From Candidatus Iainarchaeum sp. (GTDB lineage: Archaea > Iainarchaeota > Iainarchaeia > Iainarchaeales > CSSED10-239): a stretch of 5,654 bases of DNA. The DNA lies in the NCBI GenBank assembly GCA_028700115.1, contig JAQVTI010000026.1, positions 1 through 5,654 of the forward strand. The letters run 5' to 3'. The first letter of the stretch is position 1, and the number at the start of each line of letters is the position of its first letter. The position numbers and the translations under genes were made by a program. Positions 1 through 5,654 of this stretch are shown here, piece by piece. The notes beneath the pieces were generated by a model that was not told the DNA's origin, ran no database searches, and saw only the letters and a list, made by a program, of their open reading frames with translations.

Positions 1-68
1 TCCTCAACGATTTTATCTTTTTCCACATCTTCTATAAACTGTTGTTTTGTGGATTCATAAACTAGCAT
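1..68 (-). CDS. 5' end (22 codons) of a downstream gene truncated by the window edge; N-terminus resembles DUF2075 / Schlafen-group-3-type helicase proteins (tentative)
   Basis: ATG at 68..66 is preceded by AAGGAAA (74..80) with a 5-nt spacer. It lies only 12 nt after the stop of the MazG-like gene. The frame reads MLVYESTKQQFIEDVEKDKIVE and is open to position 1. The pattern M-x-x-Y-x-x-T-K-x-x-F-x-x-D-V-(4)-I matches my recollection of typical DUF2075 N-termini. With only 22 aa the family call is weak. Confidence 0.45.
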   Translation of the reverse strand, partial: MLVYESTKQQFIEDVEKDKIVE

Positions 69-73
69 AATTA

Positions 74-80
74 TTTCCTT
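74..80 (-). promoter_or_regulatory. Shine-Dalgarno-like site (AAGGAAA) for the truncated downstream gene
   Basis: Reverse complement of 74..80 is AAGGAAA. The GG core lies 8 nt upstream of the ATG at 68. The site directly abuts the TAA stop (81..83) of the preceding gene. Confidence 0.6.
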
Positions 81-437
81 TTATTCTCTACCAGGCTTTT
101 CCCAAAAACCATTATATTTTTCAACAGGATATTTAATTGCTGCTTTCTTTTGTTTATTATAAAATGCTTTTTCTAAATCTATTTTATTTCTTCCAGAAAA
201 CATTAATAGAAAAGTAAAGGTATCTGCTAGTTCGTCTTCAATCATTTCTCTTTTCTTTGGATTTTTTAGCATTTCTTTTATTTCTTTATCTGATTTAAAT
301 CTAAATAGTTCTAATAATTCTGTTCCTTCAGTTACTATTCCTATCGCTAAATCTTTAGTTTTATGATATTTTCCCCATTTTCTATCATTTGCAAATTTCA
401 TTGCAGAATTCTCTAAATCTTTAATTGTTTTAACCAT
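81..437 (-). CDS. MazG-like (DCTPP1/YpjD-type, all-alpha) nucleoside triphosphate pyrophosphohydrolase, 118 aa
   Basis: Single small domain with 'F.NDRKWGKYH.TKDLAIGIVTEGTELLELF' (E37/E40/E43, nt 309..329) and 'EDELADTFTFLL' (E69/D72, nt 222..233). These are the paired E-x-x-E / E-x-x-D Mg2+-binding helices of the all-alpha NTP-PPase superfamily. Near the C-terminus 'KQKKAAIKYP' matches the family's K-x-x-x-N-x-x-KYP-like ending. AGGTGA lies 4 nt upstream of the ATG. Confidence 0.88.
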   Translation of the reverse strand: MVKTIKDLENSAMKFANDRKWGKYHKTKDLAIGIVTEGTELLELFRFKSDKEIKEMLKNPKKREMIEDELADTFTFLLMFSGRNKIDLEKAFYNKQKKAAIKYPVEKYNGFWEKPGRE

Positions 438-441
438 AATT

Positions 442-447
442 TCACCT
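442..447 (-). promoter_or_regulatory. Shine-Dalgarno site (AGGTGA) for the MazG-like gene
   Basis: Reverse complement of 442..447 is AGGTGA, followed by AATT and then the ATG at 437..435. Confidence 0.65.
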
Positions 448-490
448 ATGTTATATTTATAAGAAACTTAATATATTTAAATGTATTCAA

Positions 491-3400
491 TTATTTATTT
501 AAATTTTGTAATACTTCTTCTAATATTGGTAAAATTTGTTGTTTAGCTAAGAATTTTAAATCACCTTGTCTTTTATAAGACCCAATACATTTTATACACC
601 CATTTGTACAACAAGGATTCTTACATAACTCAATTGCTTTTTCAAAAATTTGTTTAAAATTTGTATTAAATATTTCGATAAATCCAACACCCCCTTCTAC
701 AGTATCAAAAAATATAAATTCGCCATCACCTATTCTTAAACCATTAATTTCTCCATCTTCACAACCAGAAATTAATCTTGCAGAAGCCAGCAATGTATTT
801 AATGTAGTTTTATCTAATATTTTTGTGTCTTTTAATTTATTATCTAAATTATCATTTAAATTTATGTGTGTCGCAACAGTATTATATTTATCTAATATGT
901 CTCCATCTAAAATTTTGTGTTTACCTTTATCAATACAAACTGCTTTTTTATCAGAATTTGTATAAAATATCCCGCATTTTTCACAAATATGGTATTCTGA
1001 ATTACCTCTAACGCCAATAAATTTAAGACCGATGTTACATTTAAAGGTTTTTTGAAGAGAGGTAAAATTTTTTGGCGGATCTATTAATATTATCTCCCAA
1101 TCTACTTTTTTAGGATTTAAACTAAATTTTTTTTCTTGAGCATAAATTACTTGTGGTTTAAATAAAGTTCTTTGAACAGAAACTAAATTTTTAGCACATA
1201 TCGGACAAACAGAATATTGTTCATCAATTAATATAATTTTACACATTTCACAAGTTTTATATTTTGTAGTAAATTCAATTATATTGGATTTATTTATACT
1301 TATAGATTTACATTTATACCTTCTTTTATTTGCATCTAATGTACTAGGAGGGCATGTTTCTCTTAAAGAAAAACCTAATACTGATGGTTTGTCTTTTATT
1401 TTTATAATTGTGCCACCACTACCAAATGCAAAATCCGGAATTAATCCAAATAATCTAAATATAGTTAATGTATCTTTATTTTCTTGATTAGAATTATATT
1501 CTGATCTTACAAAAATAATACATTTGTCTAATTTTGATATCCACTCTAAAAACATTTTATCAAAATCAACTATATCTTTTACTGGAAAAATAGACTCCGA
1601 AAATTCAGTAATTATTAATTTAAATTTATCTGTATAATATTTACTCATATATTCTTTTATTTCTTTATATCTTTCAATCCAATTGTATATAGATTTCCAA
1701 GAATAATTTTTAGGAAATAATTCTAAGAACGTACTTTCAGACAATATATTTTGTAAAAATAATGAAAAAATAGATTTGCTAATAGGGTATTCTAAGTTCA
1801 AATCAAAAGAGGGTGGATAAATTCTACCCGAAATCAATTCTGACGGATTGAAATAATAATACCCGCCTAATGTAGAATCTTCTAAATAGGTAACGACAAG
1901 AGCAGATTCTGAATTTCTACCTGCTCTTCCGGATCTTTGAGTATAATTAGCAGGGGTTGGCGGGCTATATAATTGACCAACACAAGCCAAATCCCCTATA
2001 TCAATTCCCAACTCTAATGTAGGGGTGGCAATTAATATTAATTCTTGAGACTCTCTAAAATCAGATTCTATTTTTTTTCGGTATTCTGAATCTGTTTTTC
2101 CAGTGTCATTTTCTGTTTTAATAATAGGGACGTCATAATTCCAGTTATCAAAATAATTATCTGACTCAATAAAATCTGTCTTGCCTTTTTTTATAATAAT
2201 ATATGCTTCATTAATTAAATATAAATTGTCTTGTGATCTTATAATCATTTTTTTATTTTGAAGTTCAGTAAATATCTGTTTCAGATCAGAAATAGACACT
2301 TCCAATTTTTTTGCAAGTATTTCTTCTATCTTTCTAATACCTTTATTTCTTATTTGATTATAATCTATTGGATTAGACAATTCATAACATTCTTTTATTA
2401 ATTTTTGATTTTTAAACCAAGAATAAATTATTTGTAATTGTTTATTAGAAATATTATCTCCTGAATAATTTAATTTTGTTTTTATCCAGCCTCTATTTAC
2501 TAAAGAACCTACTTTTTGACTTTTAGCTATAAGTTCATTATATATTTCTAAAATTATTGTATTCTTAACATTTTCATCTATGCCTTGTTTATTTAATTTA
2601 GATTTTATCTTATCACGCATAATTTCAAATTCTACATAGTCATCTTGATCTATTAGTAAATTCAATAATTCCTTTCTTACTACATTTTTTATGTGTGTTT
2701 CTTCTATTTCTCTAGCAAATTTTGAACTTCTTTGAACATTATCTGTAAAAATTAACATTTTACGATTATTATTTGTTGCATCACCTAAATTAGAATATAA
2801 CTCATCAAATACAATATGAGAACTGTTTTCATTAGAAATTTTAGATAATGGGGCAATAATTCCTTCTCTATTACTTGTTGTTTTTTGATTACAACAATAA
2901 CAAAACCGGTTGTTTTTTACATCCATTCCATTAAATTCAATAAAATCTTTATTGTTTTGCTTTTTCACTAATATATTTATTGTAATTGCATTCTGATTTT
3001 CTGGTTTAAAACTTGACAAATCATTTGTAGTCCTATCAAGAGACAATTTAAGTGTATATTTGGAACTAAAAGAACTATCTTTTGTAGTTGAAAATAAAAA
3101 TAAGATGTCTTTATCCGCCATCGATTCAGACTTTTGTTTAATATTATTACCTACTGCAAAGAATACATTATTTAATTTAATTTTATTATTTGTATTACCA
3201 TTAATAACTTTACCAAAATATAAATAATATTCTTCACCACAATTTCTACAAGTATATATTTCAAAAATTGATTTAGATCCACAATCACAAACATTTTTTA
3301 ATTCTGAATTGTGATATAATTTTCCACAAGAAATACACCTGAAAAATGGATCTACTTTTTTAAAAAAATTGTGTATCTTATATTCTTTATTAAATAAATC

Positions 3401-4342
3401 GTTATTATTTATTTCAGATAATTTAAATATATTTTTCTCTGATTCATCAGATTCAACAATATTGGTTTTATTAAATTTATTATCTTCTAAATTAAATATT
3501 TTTCTAATAAATTTAACGGTATTTTCTATTTCATCTTTATCCCCGAGTGTTGCACTCGTACCAATATATTGGATTTTATCTAAATTATTACTTGCTTTAA
3601 ATATATTATATTGTAATCGTCTAATAAGTAAAGATAAATCTATTCCTTTTGATCCACGATAAGAATGTATTTCATCAATAATCAAATATTTTAAATCCAA
3701 ATTTTGTAATAAAACATTATATTTTGGATCAGTTAATATTCTATCTAACATAGAATAGTTCGTTAACAATATATCTGGTGGATTTGAAAATATCTGTTGA
3801 CGTTCATTATCGGGAGTATCTCCATCAAAAACATTACAGCTAATTTTCTTATTATATCTTATATTTAACTTATCTAAGTTTTTATTAATTCTGATTTTTT
3901 GATTATCAGATAATGCTTTAAGTGGATATATTATTAATATTTTTGTTTTTTTTGTGTCTACTTTTAATAAATAATTAAAAATAGGATACAAGAAACATTC
4001 TGTTTTACCACTTCCTGTGCCGGTAGTAATAAGACAATTTTTATTTTCTAAAATTTGCTTCCATGCATTAAATTGATGGCAATAAGGATTAAATTTTTCT
4101 AATTCTAAAAAATTGTGCATTTCTTTACAGAAATTTAATTTTTTTATTTCACTTTTTTCTACTTTTGGATACTCTCGTTTTTCTTCTAGATAAATTTCTG
4201 AAAAAAGAGTTTTGGTATTTTTATAATAATTCATTAATTCAGATTTTAATTTTGGATTATTATATCTGCATAAAGTTGTCAAAACAAAAGAAAGATATCT
4301 GTCACTAATTTTATTACAAAGTGTTATGTATTTATCAACCAT
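491..4342 (-). CDS. Large SF2 DEAD/DEAH-box helicase fused to a DUF1998 (MrfA-type Zn-binding) C-terminal module; COG1205-like, DrmA+DrmB / DruE-like; 1283 aa
   Basis: HQ motif PYCHQFNAW aa86-94. Motif I TTGTGSGKTE aa106-115 (nt 3998..4027). Motif Ia IIYPLKALSDNQ aa137-148. Motif II LIIDEIHSY aa220-228 (DEIH nt 3665..3676). Motif III GTSATL aa261-266. Motif IV MLIFTDNVQRS aa529-539 (nt 2726..2758). Motif V ATPTLELGIDIGDL aa772-785 (nt 1988..2026). Motif VI QRSGRAGR aa802-809 (nt 1916..1939). The post-motif-VI stretch 'ALVVTYLEDSTLGGYYYFNPSEL' is typical of the YprA/DrmA clade. The C-terminal hallmark is 'FIFFDTVEGGVGF...CKNPCCTNGCIKC'. Confidence 0.95.
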   Translation of the reverse strand: MVDKYITLCNKISDRYLSFVLTTLCRYNNPKLKSELMNYYKNTKTLFSEIYLEEKREYPKVEKSEIKKLNFCKEMHNFLELEKFNPYCHQFNAWKQILENKNCLITTGTGSGKTECFLYPIFNYLLKVDTKKTKILIIYPLKALSDNQKIRINKNLDKLNIRYNKKISCNVFDGDTPDNERQQIFSNPPDILLTNYSMLDRILTDPKYNVLLQNLDLKYLIIDEIHSYRGSKGIDLSLLIRRLQYNIFKASNNLDKIQYIGTSATLGDKDEIENTVKFIRKIFNLEDNKFNKTNIVESDESEKNIFKLSEINNNDLFNKEYKIHNFFKKVDPFFRCISCGKLYHNSELKNVCDCGSKSIFEIYTCRNCGEEYYLYFGKVINGNTNNKIKLNNVFFAVGNNIKQKSESMADKDILFLFSTTKDSSFSSKYTLKLSLDRTTNDLSSFKPENQNAITINILVKKQNNKDFIEFNGMDVKNNRFCYCCNQKTTSNREGIIAPLSKISNENSSHIVFDELYSNLGDATNNNRKMLIFTDNVQRSSKFAREIEETHIKNVVRKELLNLLIDQDDYVEFEIMRDKIKSKLNKQGIDENVKNTIILEIYNELIAKSQKVGSLVNRGWIKTKLNYSGDNISNKQLQIIYSWFKNQKLIKECYELSNPIDYNQIRNKGIRKIEEILAKKLEVSISDLKQIFTELQNKKMIIRSQDNLYLINEAYIIIKKGKTDFIESDNYFDNWNYDVPIIKTENDTGKTDSEYRKKIESDFRESQELILIATPTLELGIDIGDLACVGQLYSPPTPANYTQRSGRAGRNSESALVVTYLEDSTLGGYYYFNPSELISGRIYPPSFDLNLEYPISKSIFSLFLQNILSESTFLELFPKNYSWKSIYNWIERYKEIKEYMSKYYTDKFKLIITEFSESIFPVKDIVDFDKMFLEWISKLDKCIIFVRSEYNSNQENKDTLTIFRLFGLIPDFAFGSGGTIIKIKDKPSVLGFSLRETCPPSTLDANKRRYKCKSISINKSNIIEFTTKYKTCEMCKIILIDEQYSVCPICAKNLVSVQRTLFKPQVIYAQEKKFSLNPKKVDWEIILIDPPKNFTSLQKTFKCNIGLKFIGVRGNSEYHICEKCGIFYTNSDKKAVCIDKGKHKILDGDILDKYNTVATHINLNDNLDNKLKDTKILDKTTLNTLLASARLISGCEDGEINGLRIGDGEFIFFDTVEGGVGFIEIFNTNFKQIFEKAIELCKNPCCTNGCIKCIGSYKRQGDLKFLAKQQILPILEEVLQNLNK
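563..1465 (-). other. DrmB/DUF1998-like C-terminal module with two Zn-ribbon-like Cys pairs and a terminal Cys cluster
   Basis: aa~960-1260. 'GLIPDFAFGSGG...SLRETCPPSTLDANKRRYKC' resembles the 'lP.y.F...R...EyaPGa.v..dg..y' pattern. CEMC-x11-CPIC is aa1031-1049 (nt 1196..1252). CEKC-x12-C-x5-H is aa1120-1142 (nt 917..985). 'LNTLLASARLISGCEDGEI...FFDTVEGGVGF...C-x3-CC-x3-C-x2-C' is aa1181-1252 (nt 587..802). Confidence 0.8.
1913..4087 (-). other. Helicase motor region (RecA1+RecA2, motifs Q/HQ to VI) including two large insertions
   Basis: Spans aa86-810 of the 1283-aa ORF. Motif coordinates are given in the CDS entry. Motif III to IV is about 260 aa and motif IV to V about 230 aa, both much longer than in compact SF2 cores. 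Confidence 0.85.
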
Positions 4343-5637
4343 TTATTATCCCATTTTCTTAATCTATCAATTAATGTCCTTTTTGAATGTTTATTATATA
4401 AATAAATAAACATTAATGGAAGCACAACTTTATCCCATTTTAATAACTCTAACGGAATTTCTTTGCCATTTAATTCTAAGTTGTAACTGTTATAGATCTC
4501 AGATAAATCCTTCTGAGAATTATAATTAGTAAGTAAGAATGGTTTATAATAGATATTGGAATTTATTTTAACAAAAAACCATTTTAAATAAATATCATAA
4601 AATTCAGGATAATCTTTTGTAATATTTAATTTAAGATAAGATAATCCATTAGCTAAATTAATATAAATTTCTTCTAATTTATTTTCGGAAGAAATATATA
4701 AACGCCCAGTTAACAAATAGTTATAGTAAGCCCTCTGAACTATATTGTGACACAAAATATCTTCCGGAATAATATCAAAATTAACTTTTTCTAATATTAT
4801 CTCTCTTATTAATTTATTTTTTTTATAGGTAATATCTTTAAATAATGCAAATCCCCAGTTTTCATTATTTTGTTGTAATTCTCGTATTAAATCAATATTA
4901 TCTATACTTACTTTTACATTTTGATAATAAGTATTTAATCCATTTAATACAGACAAATTTATACTGTTTTGTCCTGTGGAATAATTATATTTAATTACGG
5001 AAACAAAATAATTAATATAATAATTTTGTTTATCTGAATCGTATTGATTCGGAGAAAATTTAGGCGAAAAATAACTCATAAAAACTTCTGCAGATCTTTT
5101 TAAAAAAGGAAAATAAATCCAATTCGAAAAAAACTTGTTCTCTTCGGTTATAAAATTAATTTGAGATTTAAAAGTTAATATATGACAATAATTTTTTGCT
5201 TTATCCCCTAATAAATATTTCTCAGATATAACTATATTTTCTATTTCTTTTGAATTTAATTTTGAACAAATTTCCTTATAAGTACTTATGTTTTTTTCTT
5301 TTAATTTATCTTCTGAACCGACCCACAAAATTAAGGAAATTGGAGTTTCTAGTTCTAAACAAATACCTAAAAAGAAATATTTGTATAACTCAGAATTACA
5401 ATAATATGTTTTAAGATCTTTAGATCTAATATATCCATCATTTATTCTTATAGTTAAAGGAAATATTCGGTCTCCTTCTATATTTAGATTTTTATTTATG
5501 TGGTTATACAAATCTCTCAAATTTTGATATTCTTTTAAATCGGTTATAAAATTTGTTACATCATTATCTAATCGATTCTTAAATCTAAATTCTTCTGGAG
5601 AATTATCTATATTTATCTGTTTATTAATCATAGTCAC
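4324..5637 (-). CDS. Hypothetical protein, 437 aa as tracked; no recognisable domain; translationally coupled to the downstream helicase; 5' end unresolved
   Basis: Long uninterrupted ORF in 25%-GC DNA, where random frames are stop-rich. Its TAA stop (4324..4326) lies 19 nt inside the helicase ORF, whose ATG is at 4342. The tracked start is GTG (5637..5635), and an ATG follows two codons later (5631..5629). The frame has no stop between 5637 and the window edge (AGA AAA AAA GAA AAA GTG), so the gene may start outside the window. There is no clear SD upstream of either candidate start. Confidence 0.8.
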   Translation of the reverse strand: MTMINKQINIDNSPEEFRFKNRLDNDVTNFITDLKEYQNLRDLYNHINKNLNIEGDRIFPLTIRINDGYIRSKDLKTYYCNSELYKYFFLGICLELETPISLILWVGSEDKLKEKNISTYKEICSKLNSKEIENIVISEKYLLGDKAKNYCHILTFKSQINFITEENKFFSNWIYFPFLKRSAEVFMSYFSPKFSPNQYDSDKQNYYINYFVSVIKYNYSTGQNSINLSVLNGLNTYYQNVKVSIDNIDLIRELQQNNENWGFALFKDITYKKNKLIREIILEKVNFDIIPEDILCHNIVQRAYYNYLLTGRLYISSENKLEEIYINLANGLSYLKLNITKDYPEFYDIYLKWFFVKINSNIYYKPFLLTNYNSQKDLSEIYNSYNLELNGKEIPLELLKWDKVVLPLMFIYLYNKHSKRTLIDRLRKWDNKWLINT

Positions 5638-5654
5638 TTTTTCTTTTTTTCTAA

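Follow-up and report, generated by a model that had tools for sequence, protein, structure and literature searches.

The stretch of DNA analysed here (the window) comprises 5,654 nt of Candidatus Iainarchaeum sp. (GCA_028700115.1, contig JAQVTI010000026.1, positions 1 to 5,654 of the forward strand), has a G+C content of 23% and carries every gene on the minus strand. It holds an overlapping gene pair that consists of a 435-aa protein of an unannotated family (4324..5631, −), hereafter the partner, and a 1283-aa YprA/DruE-like superfamily 2 (SF2) helicase (491..4342, −) that has a fused OB-CON-MZB(DUF1998) region and no nuclease domain. The 3′ end and stop of the partner gene overlap the helicase gene from its ATG by 19 nt (4324..4342, −), and the open reading frame (ORF) list reproduces this overlap as it was given in the first-pass annotation of the window. 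That annotation assigned 437 aa to the partner, which is the length of the ORF when it is opened at GTG 5637; the ORF itself stands, but ATG 5631 is the likelier start. It is the start of product P0001, called on a 100%-identical JGI contig, and it lines up with the ATG of relatives, while GTG 5637 overlaps the TGA of the upstream gene. The window proteins gave zero matches when looked up as exact sequences, and the genomic context described below is drawn from relatives. No signal over background was obtained in the window for tRNAs, Rfam families, meaningful repeats, promoters or terminators. As argued below, the locus probably encodes a minimal two-gene system against viruses or other mobile genetic elements, built on a compact YprA/DruE-type helicase and representing a stripped-down, mainly archaeal relative of Druantia III.

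The helicase consists of a tandem RecA core with motifs I–VI and a C-terminal MZB domain, the features that define the YprA/MrfA family. The RecA1/DEAD domain (aa 89–267; 3542..4078, −; PF00270, 5.4e-29) contains the Walker A motif GTGSGKT (aa 108–114, including K113) and the DEIH motif (aa 223–226), and the RecA2/Helicase_C domain (aa 742–810; 1913..2119, −; PF00271, 6.7e-17) contains motif VI, QRSGRAGR (aa 802–809). These motifs and the SAT motif (aa 263–265) are invariant in an alignment of 15 clade members, as are 18 Cys residues that include the MZB cluster and three more CxxC pairs-of-pairs. The MZB (MrfA Zn-binding, DUF1998) domain itself (aa 1184–1253; 584..793, −; PF09369, 7.7e-8) contributes C1240, C1244, C1245, C1249 and C1252. 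The Pfam domains and the invariant motif columns thus agree with the first-pass description of a complete set of SF2 motifs followed by a C-terminal DUF1998 Cys cluster, all three Pfam families that it anticipated were found, and a single 1283-aa ORF carries both the helicase and the DUF1998 module. The ORF list and Pfam likewise agree with it that the window contains no PLD, methyltransferase or SNF2 gene.

An AlphaFold2 (AF2) model of helicase residues 1–860 (pLDDT 81) places a β-rich Zn module and a helical insertion ahead of RecA2, and its best fold match is MrfA (4.9e-14; PDB 6znp). The Zn-binding insertion (aa ~321–498; 2849..3382, −) was delimited from the AF2 secondary structure and from Cys residues that are invariant in the 15-member alignment (C336/C339/C352/C354, C365/C368 and C481/C484), and its CxCGS...C..C motif aligns to residues ~488–505 of E. 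coli DruE in hhalign. Its β-rich character and CxxC motifs are those of the β-barrel Zn-binding module of the defence branch, and in the model the segment corresponds to the Zn β-barrel of Bell et al.; such a barrel (ZBM) at the start of RecA2 has been described for the ARMADA-Druantia lineage (PMC12458937). A BrxA-like helical domain directly after RecA1 has been proposed as a synapomorphy of the defence YprA branch (PMC12458937). Between the end of RecA1 (~aa 300) and the Zn module, short helices only are seen in the AF2 model, and hhalign leaves a large gap in the helicase opposite residues ~330–470 of E. coli DruE; the BrxA-like domain is not evident and may have been lost or reduced.

Among 5.8 billion proteins, 16 full-length relatives of the helicase were found, with lengths of 1230–1316 aa and identities of 34–97%, from 'Candidatus ainarchaeum sp.' (an Iainarchaeota-like metagenome-assembled genome (MAG)), Methanococcus voltae, a Bacteroidales MAG and metagenomes. 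These proteins form a discrete clade, because the score drops after them from at least 663 to at most 278 bits; the next helicases are 1600–2200 aa long. The nearest relatives beyond the clade are ARMADA-like and unclassified YprA helicases (207–278 bits). Within the PADLOC library the best match is DruE1 (256 bits, 1.9e-76), followed by DruE3 (244 bits, 1e-72), and the M. voltae homolog scores 262 bits against PADLOC DruE. The match to DruE1 falls into five stretches of the 1776-position model and that to DruE3 into four; neither a full-length DruE match nor the length of ~1500–2100 aa expected of Druantia was found. PADLOC DrmA models match the RecA2 segment only (aa 725–837, 6.5e-16). The Pfam family YjiV_N, the N-terminal domain of DruE, is recognised in a relative that is 97% identical to the helicase.

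A profile of the helicase clade aligns with E. coli DruE (2114 aa; locus L022) at an hhalign probability of 100%, with aa 85–1282 matched to aa 100–1734. The alignment stops at residue 1734 of 2114, and therefore the C-terminal ~380 residues of DruE, its PLD region, are absent from the helicase, and its internal domains are shorter. Pfam detects no PLD, Vsr or MIT_C domain in the helicase, so the C-terminal nuclease domain of Druantia is lacking, in line with the first-pass remark that no nuclease domain is visible. Among solved sequences, the top match is a 2108-aa helicase, 9tu7 (3.7e-41, 144 bits), which was deposited alongside DruH and which we take to be E. coli DruE; MrfA (6znp, 8.6e-32) is next. 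Most III-B-like helicases are likewise without a nuclease domain (PMC12458937).

We also inspected the surroundings of some of the nearest helicases outside the clade. Two that are ARMADA-like (P0025 in L007 and P0086 in L019) have SNF2 and PglX-like methyltransferase genes upstream, a third (L023) is solitary and a fourth (L024) lies beside a PLD gene; DruH is absent from all four contexts. The 346-aa gene upstream of the L024 helicase was considered as a relative of the partner and proved unrelated.

The partner gene lies directly upstream of the helicase gene, and overlaps it, in nine of nine non-redundant loci (the window, L001, L003, L004, L006, L008, L012, L014 and L015). The overlap measures 19 nt in the window, L001, L003 and L012, 13 nt in M. 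voltae (L004), 22 nt in L006 and 25 nt in L008 (Aenigmatarchaeota), L014 and L015. Both reading frames are conserved through it, as seen at W431 of the partner and at M1, Y16 and F19 of the helicase. An overlap of 13–25 nt in every two-gene relative, together with the conservation of both frames, indicates that the arrangement is not due to chance. The two genes co-diverge: partner and helicase identities fall in step across relatives (85/85, 42/47, 35/45, 29/38 and 28/35%, respectively). In comparisons with 85%-identical relatives, dN/dS is 0.10–0.20 for both genes (0.10–0.19 for the partner), which reveals purifying selection. Co-translation and a fixed stoichiometry, as suggested in the first-pass annotation, are a reading of the overlap. 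No further neighbour is common to all branches of the pair. In the 96%-identical contig L010, the partner ORF (L010:3387-4508) is wholly divergent past residue 319 and has an unrelated end near the end of the contig; disruption of the copy, the junction of an insertion or a chimeric assembly may be the cause.

An exhaustive phmmer search of 1.84 billion cluster representatives returned 26 relatives of the partner, nearly all of 420–460 aa. The family alignment shows conserved CPELE (E93, E95), W103, W171, PFLKRSxE (P175, K178, E182), SP (aa 189–190), H295, YYNYL and YYxP motifs or residues. No Pfam, NCBIfam or PADLOC model matches the partner at E ≤ 0.1, and no Pfam family is common to the 31 members of the family that were scanned. 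Single members carry TPR, PUA or DUF1232 domains as sporadic N-terminal add-ons, and the homologs P0133, P0143 and P0144 have N-terminal extensions of 100–200 aa, with TPR repeats in that of P0133; the ~430-aa partner core can evidently take on extra domains. An exonuclease match in Pfam is likewise absent from the family, consistent with the first-pass statement that the partner shows no DEDD exonuclease features.

The relation of the partner to DruH was assessed with hidden Markov models (HMMs) and with profiles. The PADLOC library that was scanned includes models for DruH, DruL, DruF, DISARM and Hachiman. At E ≤ 1, none of the 31 family members matches DruH, DruL, DruF or another Druantia accessory model, and the lone PADLOC match at that threshold is a weak one to RecD_like in one member (E 0.011); E. 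coli K-12 YjiT, scanned as the positive control, matches 11 PADLOC DruH models, the best at 3.7e-241. A DruH profile of 25 sequences, built around the full-length E. coli protein (1096 aa; L021), and the partner-family profile give an hhalign probability of 0.3%. A DruH next to DruE, the defining feature of Druantia type III, is therefore not recovered by either method, and no DruH-like gene is present in the related loci L004, L006, L008 and L012. DruH is 1096 aa in E. coli and 1132 aa in M. smegmatis (PMC13316683), and the PADLOC DruH models that were matched span 1036–1168 positions; the first-pass statement that the partner appears much shorter than DruH is thus correct.

These results bear on the possibility that the pair is a highly diverged, miniaturised Druantia III-B, in which the partner would be a DruH homolog minus most of its Ig-like domains and set apart by sequence drift only. 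The gene order is that of DruH-DruE, and the overlap is similar to the 17 bp found in M. smegmatis (PMC13316683). In addition, III-B DruE has been described as compact and without PLD domains (10.64898/2026.05.13.724758; PMC12458937), and the helical/β-rich/helical outline of the partner model described below resembles the N-helical, Ig-like and C-helical organisation of DruH (10.64898/2026.05.13.724313). We consider this explanation improbable, given the failure of all 31 family members in a search in which YjiT matches 11 DruH models, the near-zero profile probability, a length of 435 aa against ~1100 aa, and a helicase clade that is clearly set off in bit score from the other YprA helicases.

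A side observation concerns E. coli K-12 MG1655 (yjiT-yjiV, L020:10415-14856). Its 505-aa yjiT product corresponds to the N-terminal half of DruH, matching positions 1–503 of the 1100 in the PADLOC DruH3 model (3.7e-241), and yjiV, an annotated pseudogene, lies in the place that druE takes in intact strains. Other E. coli strains (L021, L022) carry an intact DruH of 1096 aa and DruE of 2114 aa, so that a decayed Druantia III seems to remain in K-12 between yjiS and mcrC.

The AF2 model of the partner is confident (pLDDT 90.2, pTM 0.90); it starts with a helical hairpin, continues with long antiparallel strands (aa ~59–284) and ends in a helical domain. A Foldseek search of the model against a PDB set that predates the DruE and DruH depositions gave nothing at E ≤ 1e-3; this negative is uninformative with respect to DruH, because the helicase model also fails to find 9tu7 there. 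At the level of sequence, the PDB set does include 9tud, labelled 'DruH', and the partner-family profile gave zero matches in it at E ≤ 1. Fold matches to GFP and GCaMP were discarded as spurious (TM ~0.1). A local OB-fold match in the PDB to Rim1, a single-stranded DNA-binding (SSB) protein, has a Foldseek probability of 1.0 over 83 columns, and LEF-3 proteins in BFVD match with probabilities of 0.98–0.99 (E 1e-4 to 3e-3). LEF-3 is the single-strand DNA-binding protein of baculoviruses. The modelled core of the partner therefore bears a weak OB/SSB-like resemblance, and this signal, along with the conserved acidic, Lys and His residues, would be compatible with a DNA-binding and possibly catalytic role.

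Homologous pairs were found mostly among other defence genes. In M. voltae (L004), the pair comes after type I hsdM/S/R and before two resolvases, which are followed by cas4-cas2-cas1 and type I-B effector genes. In L006, GmrSD, AbiEii, several unknowns, a 374-aa protein and Bles03 precede the pair, and a MazG-like gene, a DUF2075 helicase gene and the genes for an NgoPII restriction enzyme and its methylase follow it. In L012, the pair has a UvrD-PD-(D/E)xK (GajB-like) gene and the gene for a 379-aa protein before it, and genes for a PDC-S61-like protein and an MmeI-like restriction–modification (R-M) enzyme after it. These contexts support the location of homologous pairs in variable defence islands and not in a conserved housekeeping context. 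Both points that the first-pass annotation proposed to check, a partner always upstream of the helicase and a setting in defence islands, are thus upheld, the latter with the exception of the Aenigmatarchaeota locus, where the flanks are housekeeping genes; that locus would fit the insertion of a self-contained cassette into a small genome. The hosts are patchy, comprising Iainarchaeota-like and Aenigmatarchaeota MAGs, Methanococcus and a Bacteroidales MAG, and the search pattern used gave one match among 185,579 species-representative genomes. A further observation concerns a ~900-aa UvrD-helicase/PD-(D/E)xK fusion with PADLOC matches to GajB-like and DRT-associated helicases, which precedes the pair by a few genes in three loci of the subclade (L011:4525-7254, L012:2597-5305 and L010:688-1224). 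In L010 only a 178-aa ORF for its C-terminal part is listed, and small Mrr-like/PDDEXK_5 genes lie between this UvrD-type ORF and the 378-aa gene described below.

The context also speaks to the idea that the pair is a DNA-repair module like MrfAB and not an immune system. MrfA is the best solved fold match of the helicase, the MZB domain is present, and the Aenigmatarchaeota locus has housekeeping flanks, all of which a repair role would explain. We nonetheless regard such a role as very unlikely. PADLOC DruE models far outscore the repair-type models, and the NCBIfam repair-type helicase models score far under their cut-offs; the helicase has additional Zn modules, as is typical in the defence branch (PMC12458937); the partner is no DEDD exonuclease; the family is as rare and patchy as described above; and the neighbours are R-M, CRISPR, Abi and GmrSD genes.

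In this lineage the pair is not the 5′ end of its gene cluster, since the window begins, in the direction of transcription, with the last codons of a conserved gene for a 378-aa coiled-coil protein (LEKKKK and TGA, six codons plus the stop; 5634..5654, −), which is cut by the window edge. In the window, L009 (an identical contig), L001-L003 and L010, this gene stops 2 nt before the partner ATG and encodes the shared C-terminus ...EIEHRKQ(I/L)KDQKLLEKKKK*. The whole gene is present in the 96% relative (L010:2248-3384), and copies of 52–58% identity occur in L006 (7029-8153), L011 and L012 (5663-6802), adjoining the pair in L012 and L011 and lying one gene off in L006. M. voltae, Aenigmatarchaeota and L014-L017 do not have it next to the pair; because the distant branches lack it, the gene is best viewed as a subclade accessory or part of a neighbouring system. 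Its product combines a coiled coil at the N-terminus with an invariant motif in the C-terminal part, KGKPDNTI..QYIIFDAKSP..IYLVVP, which, judged from its sequence, may be PD-(D/E)xK-like, of RmuC/Vsr type. Two of four members give a weak Pfam Vsr match (E 0.025), and no family model backs a nuclease fold; an RmuC identity, read from the motif, was not confirmed by Pfam. Because the window breaks this gene off, a candidate nuclease may lie beyond the coordinates of the first-pass annotation. Five independent assemblies of this lineage (L001:1-106, L002:1-33, L003:1-39, L009:1-197 and positions 5632-5654 of the window) all stop in the 3′ part of the 378-aa gene, no more than ~200 nt from the partner gene on its upstream side, and this shared break point hints at strain-level heterogeneity or a recombination boundary.

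On the other side of the pair, a MazG-like gene (118 aa; 81..437, −; PF12643, 6.7e-7) follows the helicase stop at a distance of 53 nt, and the 53-nt spacer ahead of it holds a TATA-like and a Shine–Dalgarno-like element. It is followed by the first 22 codons (MLVYESTKQQFIEDVEKDKIVE) of a DUF2075/SLFN-g3-type helicase gene (1..68, −), cut by the window edge. The DUF2075 N-terminus also occurs in L001 (622+ aa, PF09848) and in L006 (626 aa), where the copy matches PADLOC PDC-S41 (2e-18) and also AbiO/Nhi. The two genes occur together in relatives (L001:5317-7552; L006:13935-16186), and the MazG-like gene does not accompany the pair in L004, L008 or L012. Between the window and L001 the MazG-like proteins are 52.5% identical where the pair is 85% identical, a difference that suggests independent exchange, and the MazG-like and DUF2075 genes look like a separate, independently exchanged module.

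A larger functional unit would be conceivable from this layout. In the lineage of the window the unit may comprise at least three genes (the 378-aa protein, the partner and the helicase), possibly with the MazG-like and DUF2075 genes, such that the pair alone would be insufficient. The tight packing of the 378-aa gene against the partner, its proximity to the pair in L012, L011 and L006, and a motif that recalls RmuC/Vsr-type PD-(D/E)xK nucleases, albeit with a weak Vsr match, would fit this idea, as would a helicase without the nuclease domain that DruE and ARMADA helicases have. Against it stand the missing 378-aa gene in M. voltae, Aenigmatarchaeota and L014-L017, the lack of any family model for a nuclease fold in that protein, and the MazG-like gene's lower identity and own upstream spacer. 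We therefore judge a larger unit to be somewhat unlikely and retain the two-gene system as the preferred explanation.

Several observations weigh against that preference. The helicase scores nearer to ARMADA-like and unclassified YprA helicases (207–278 bits) than to 9tu7 (144 bits), and for this reason 'Druantia-like' is a loose label. The partner has no detectable sequence or profile relationship to DruH, so that the analogy between them rests on gene position alone. Its SSB-like matches have low TM-scores (0.15–0.39) and borderline E-values, and no nuclease fold or motif was identified in it. In Aenigmatarchaeota the pair has SAICAR synthase and LeuRS genes on one side and unrelated genes on the other, and further defence genes are missing there. 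Searches of viral contigs and plasmids gave no member of the family, and mobility is therefore deduced from the patchy distribution only. Finally, we infer the defence function from genomic context only.

With these points in mind, a mechanism for the two-gene system can be drawn by analogy with MrfA and with E. coli and P. aeruginosa DruE, the analogy extending to the DNA substrate, the polarity, the role of the partner and a physical interaction of the two proteins, all of which are provisional. DruE unwinds DNA 3′-to-5′ from single-stranded DNA (ssDNA), and its PLD domains are dispensable (10.64898/2026.05.13.724758); movement in this direction from exposed ssDNA is also reported in 10.64898/2026.05.12.722862. 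By analogy, the helicase would load onto exposed ssDNA of the invader and move 3′-to-5′ through its RecA1/RecA2 core, while the OB-CON-MZB canopy and the Zn modules would grip the strand. The partner, which occupies the gene position of DruH, would bind and possibly cut ssDNA or a junction and could provide specificity or the effector step, a putative role in line with the sensor or effector suggested in the first-pass annotation. Since the helicase is without a nuclease domain, clearance would have to occur via the partner, by unwinding or displacement itself, or through host or neighbouring nucleases, with the 378-aa PD-(D/E)xK-like protein as one nuclease candidate in the lineage of the window. 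DruH offers several precedents, having been described as a 3′-5′ exonuclease (10.64898/2026.05.13.724313), as a dimer-activated nickase and protein-sensing factor (PMC13192584) and as an ATP-inhibited ssDNA binder without nuclease activity (10.64898/2026.05.12.722862). A bolder form of the proposal, which we advance tentatively and with less confidence than the two-gene system itself, is that the partner represents a new family and fold and not a shrunken DruH, that it supplies ssDNA or junction recognition and perhaps cleavage, and that with the nuclease-less helicase it forms the smallest self-sufficient YprA-based immune system, native to archaea and including host-dependent DPANN lineages.

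If the proposal is true, such a minimal system would show what can be left out of the 3,200-residue Druantia III machinery, and it would make helicase-based immunity experimentally tractable in archaea as well. Its hosts include DPANN lineages, which have tiny genomes, and Methanococcus, for which genetic tools are established; to our knowledge, few non-CRISPR defence systems have been characterised in either. The partner family, with a confident predicted structure and no annotation, would serve as a new marker for annotation pipelines, because PADLOC as run would give only an orphan, fragmentary DruE match at such loci. Four 2026 preprints differ on the role of DruH and on the need for the nuclease domains of DruE. 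A natural version reduced to a 1283-aa nuclease-less helicase and a 435-aa non-DruH partner would test which activities are essential to immunity by YprA helicases. No new principle is implied; the value of the pair lies in a naturally minimal archaeal version that bears on the DruH/DruE nuclease-domain dispute.

Comparison with catalogued systems places the pair near several of them and within none. The first-pass annotation had called it Druantia-III/DISARM-core-like and had suggested that it does not map cleanly onto described systems. The second statement is supported, in that DruE models match in fragments and the partner matches no DruH, DISARM or Hachiman model; of the first, the Druantia-like helicase stands, and the comparison with DISARM adds little. 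The helicase does share with the DISARM core a YprA-family helicase and a DUF1998 module, but the two are fused here and split into DrmA and DrmB there, and no DrmC PLD, methyltransferase or SNF2 gene is linked. The likeness to Hachiman, in which the HamA nuclease accompanies the HamB helicase, is one of logic and not of homology: a small, formerly unannotated protein lies beside a large SF2 helicase that surveys DNA, HamB is not a YprA/MZB helicase, and PADLOC gives no HamA or HamB match. MrfAB/YprAB is closer, with the same core fold, the DEAD, Helicase_C and MZB domains, and a helicase with one accessory gene; in contrast to MrfAB, whose helicase has ~750 aa, the helicase here is ~530 aa longer and carries inserted Zn modules, MrfB is a DEDD 3′-5′ exonuclease and the partner is not, and the pair lies in defence islands with a patchy distribution. 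ARMADA I/II belongs with the helicase to the same ARMADA-Druantia YprA superclade, and the top relatives outside the clade include ARMADA-like proteins. ARMADA systems combine a YprA-like helicase, a BrxHII-like helicase and a PglX-like methyltransferase, whereas SNF2/BrxHII-like, PglX-like and GajB-RelE genes are linked to the pair in zero of nine loci, and the C-terminal Vsr nuclease is lacking in its helicase. The signatures of ARMADA, DISARM and MrfAB are thus absent from the pair.

Druantia is the remaining comparison. The C-terminal domain of Druantia helicases is a PLD in III-A and an inactivated Vsr in types I and II, and the accessories of types I, II and IV (DruA-D, DruM/F/G and DruF/DruL) have no PADLOC match in the partner, the 378-aa protein or the neighbours. 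The pair differs from type III in that its helicase is 1283 aa long, as compared with ~1670 aa for DruE of III-B (M. smegmatis) and ~2110 aa for III-A; in that the DruE HMMs are matched in fragments only; in its mainly archaeal hosts; and in a partner of 435 aa that has no HMM or profile similarity to DruH at ~1100 aa. We do not file the pair as Druantia III, because DruH was not found and the DruE models are only partly matched. Since 2025–26 the literature has contained the compact Druantia III-B, with a DruE that lacks PLD domains, and a YprA defence radiation of ARMADA, BRIGADE and TALON (PMC12458937), and the helicase half is therefore a new branch and not a new kind. Druantia III resembles the pair in having two genes, of which the upstream one is of unknown function and overlaps that for a large YprA helicase with OB-CON-MZB and Zn modules, and III-B shares with it the absence of PLD domains and the defence-island context. 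By this analogy, the logic of the proposed system matches that of Druantia III, and especially that of III-B.

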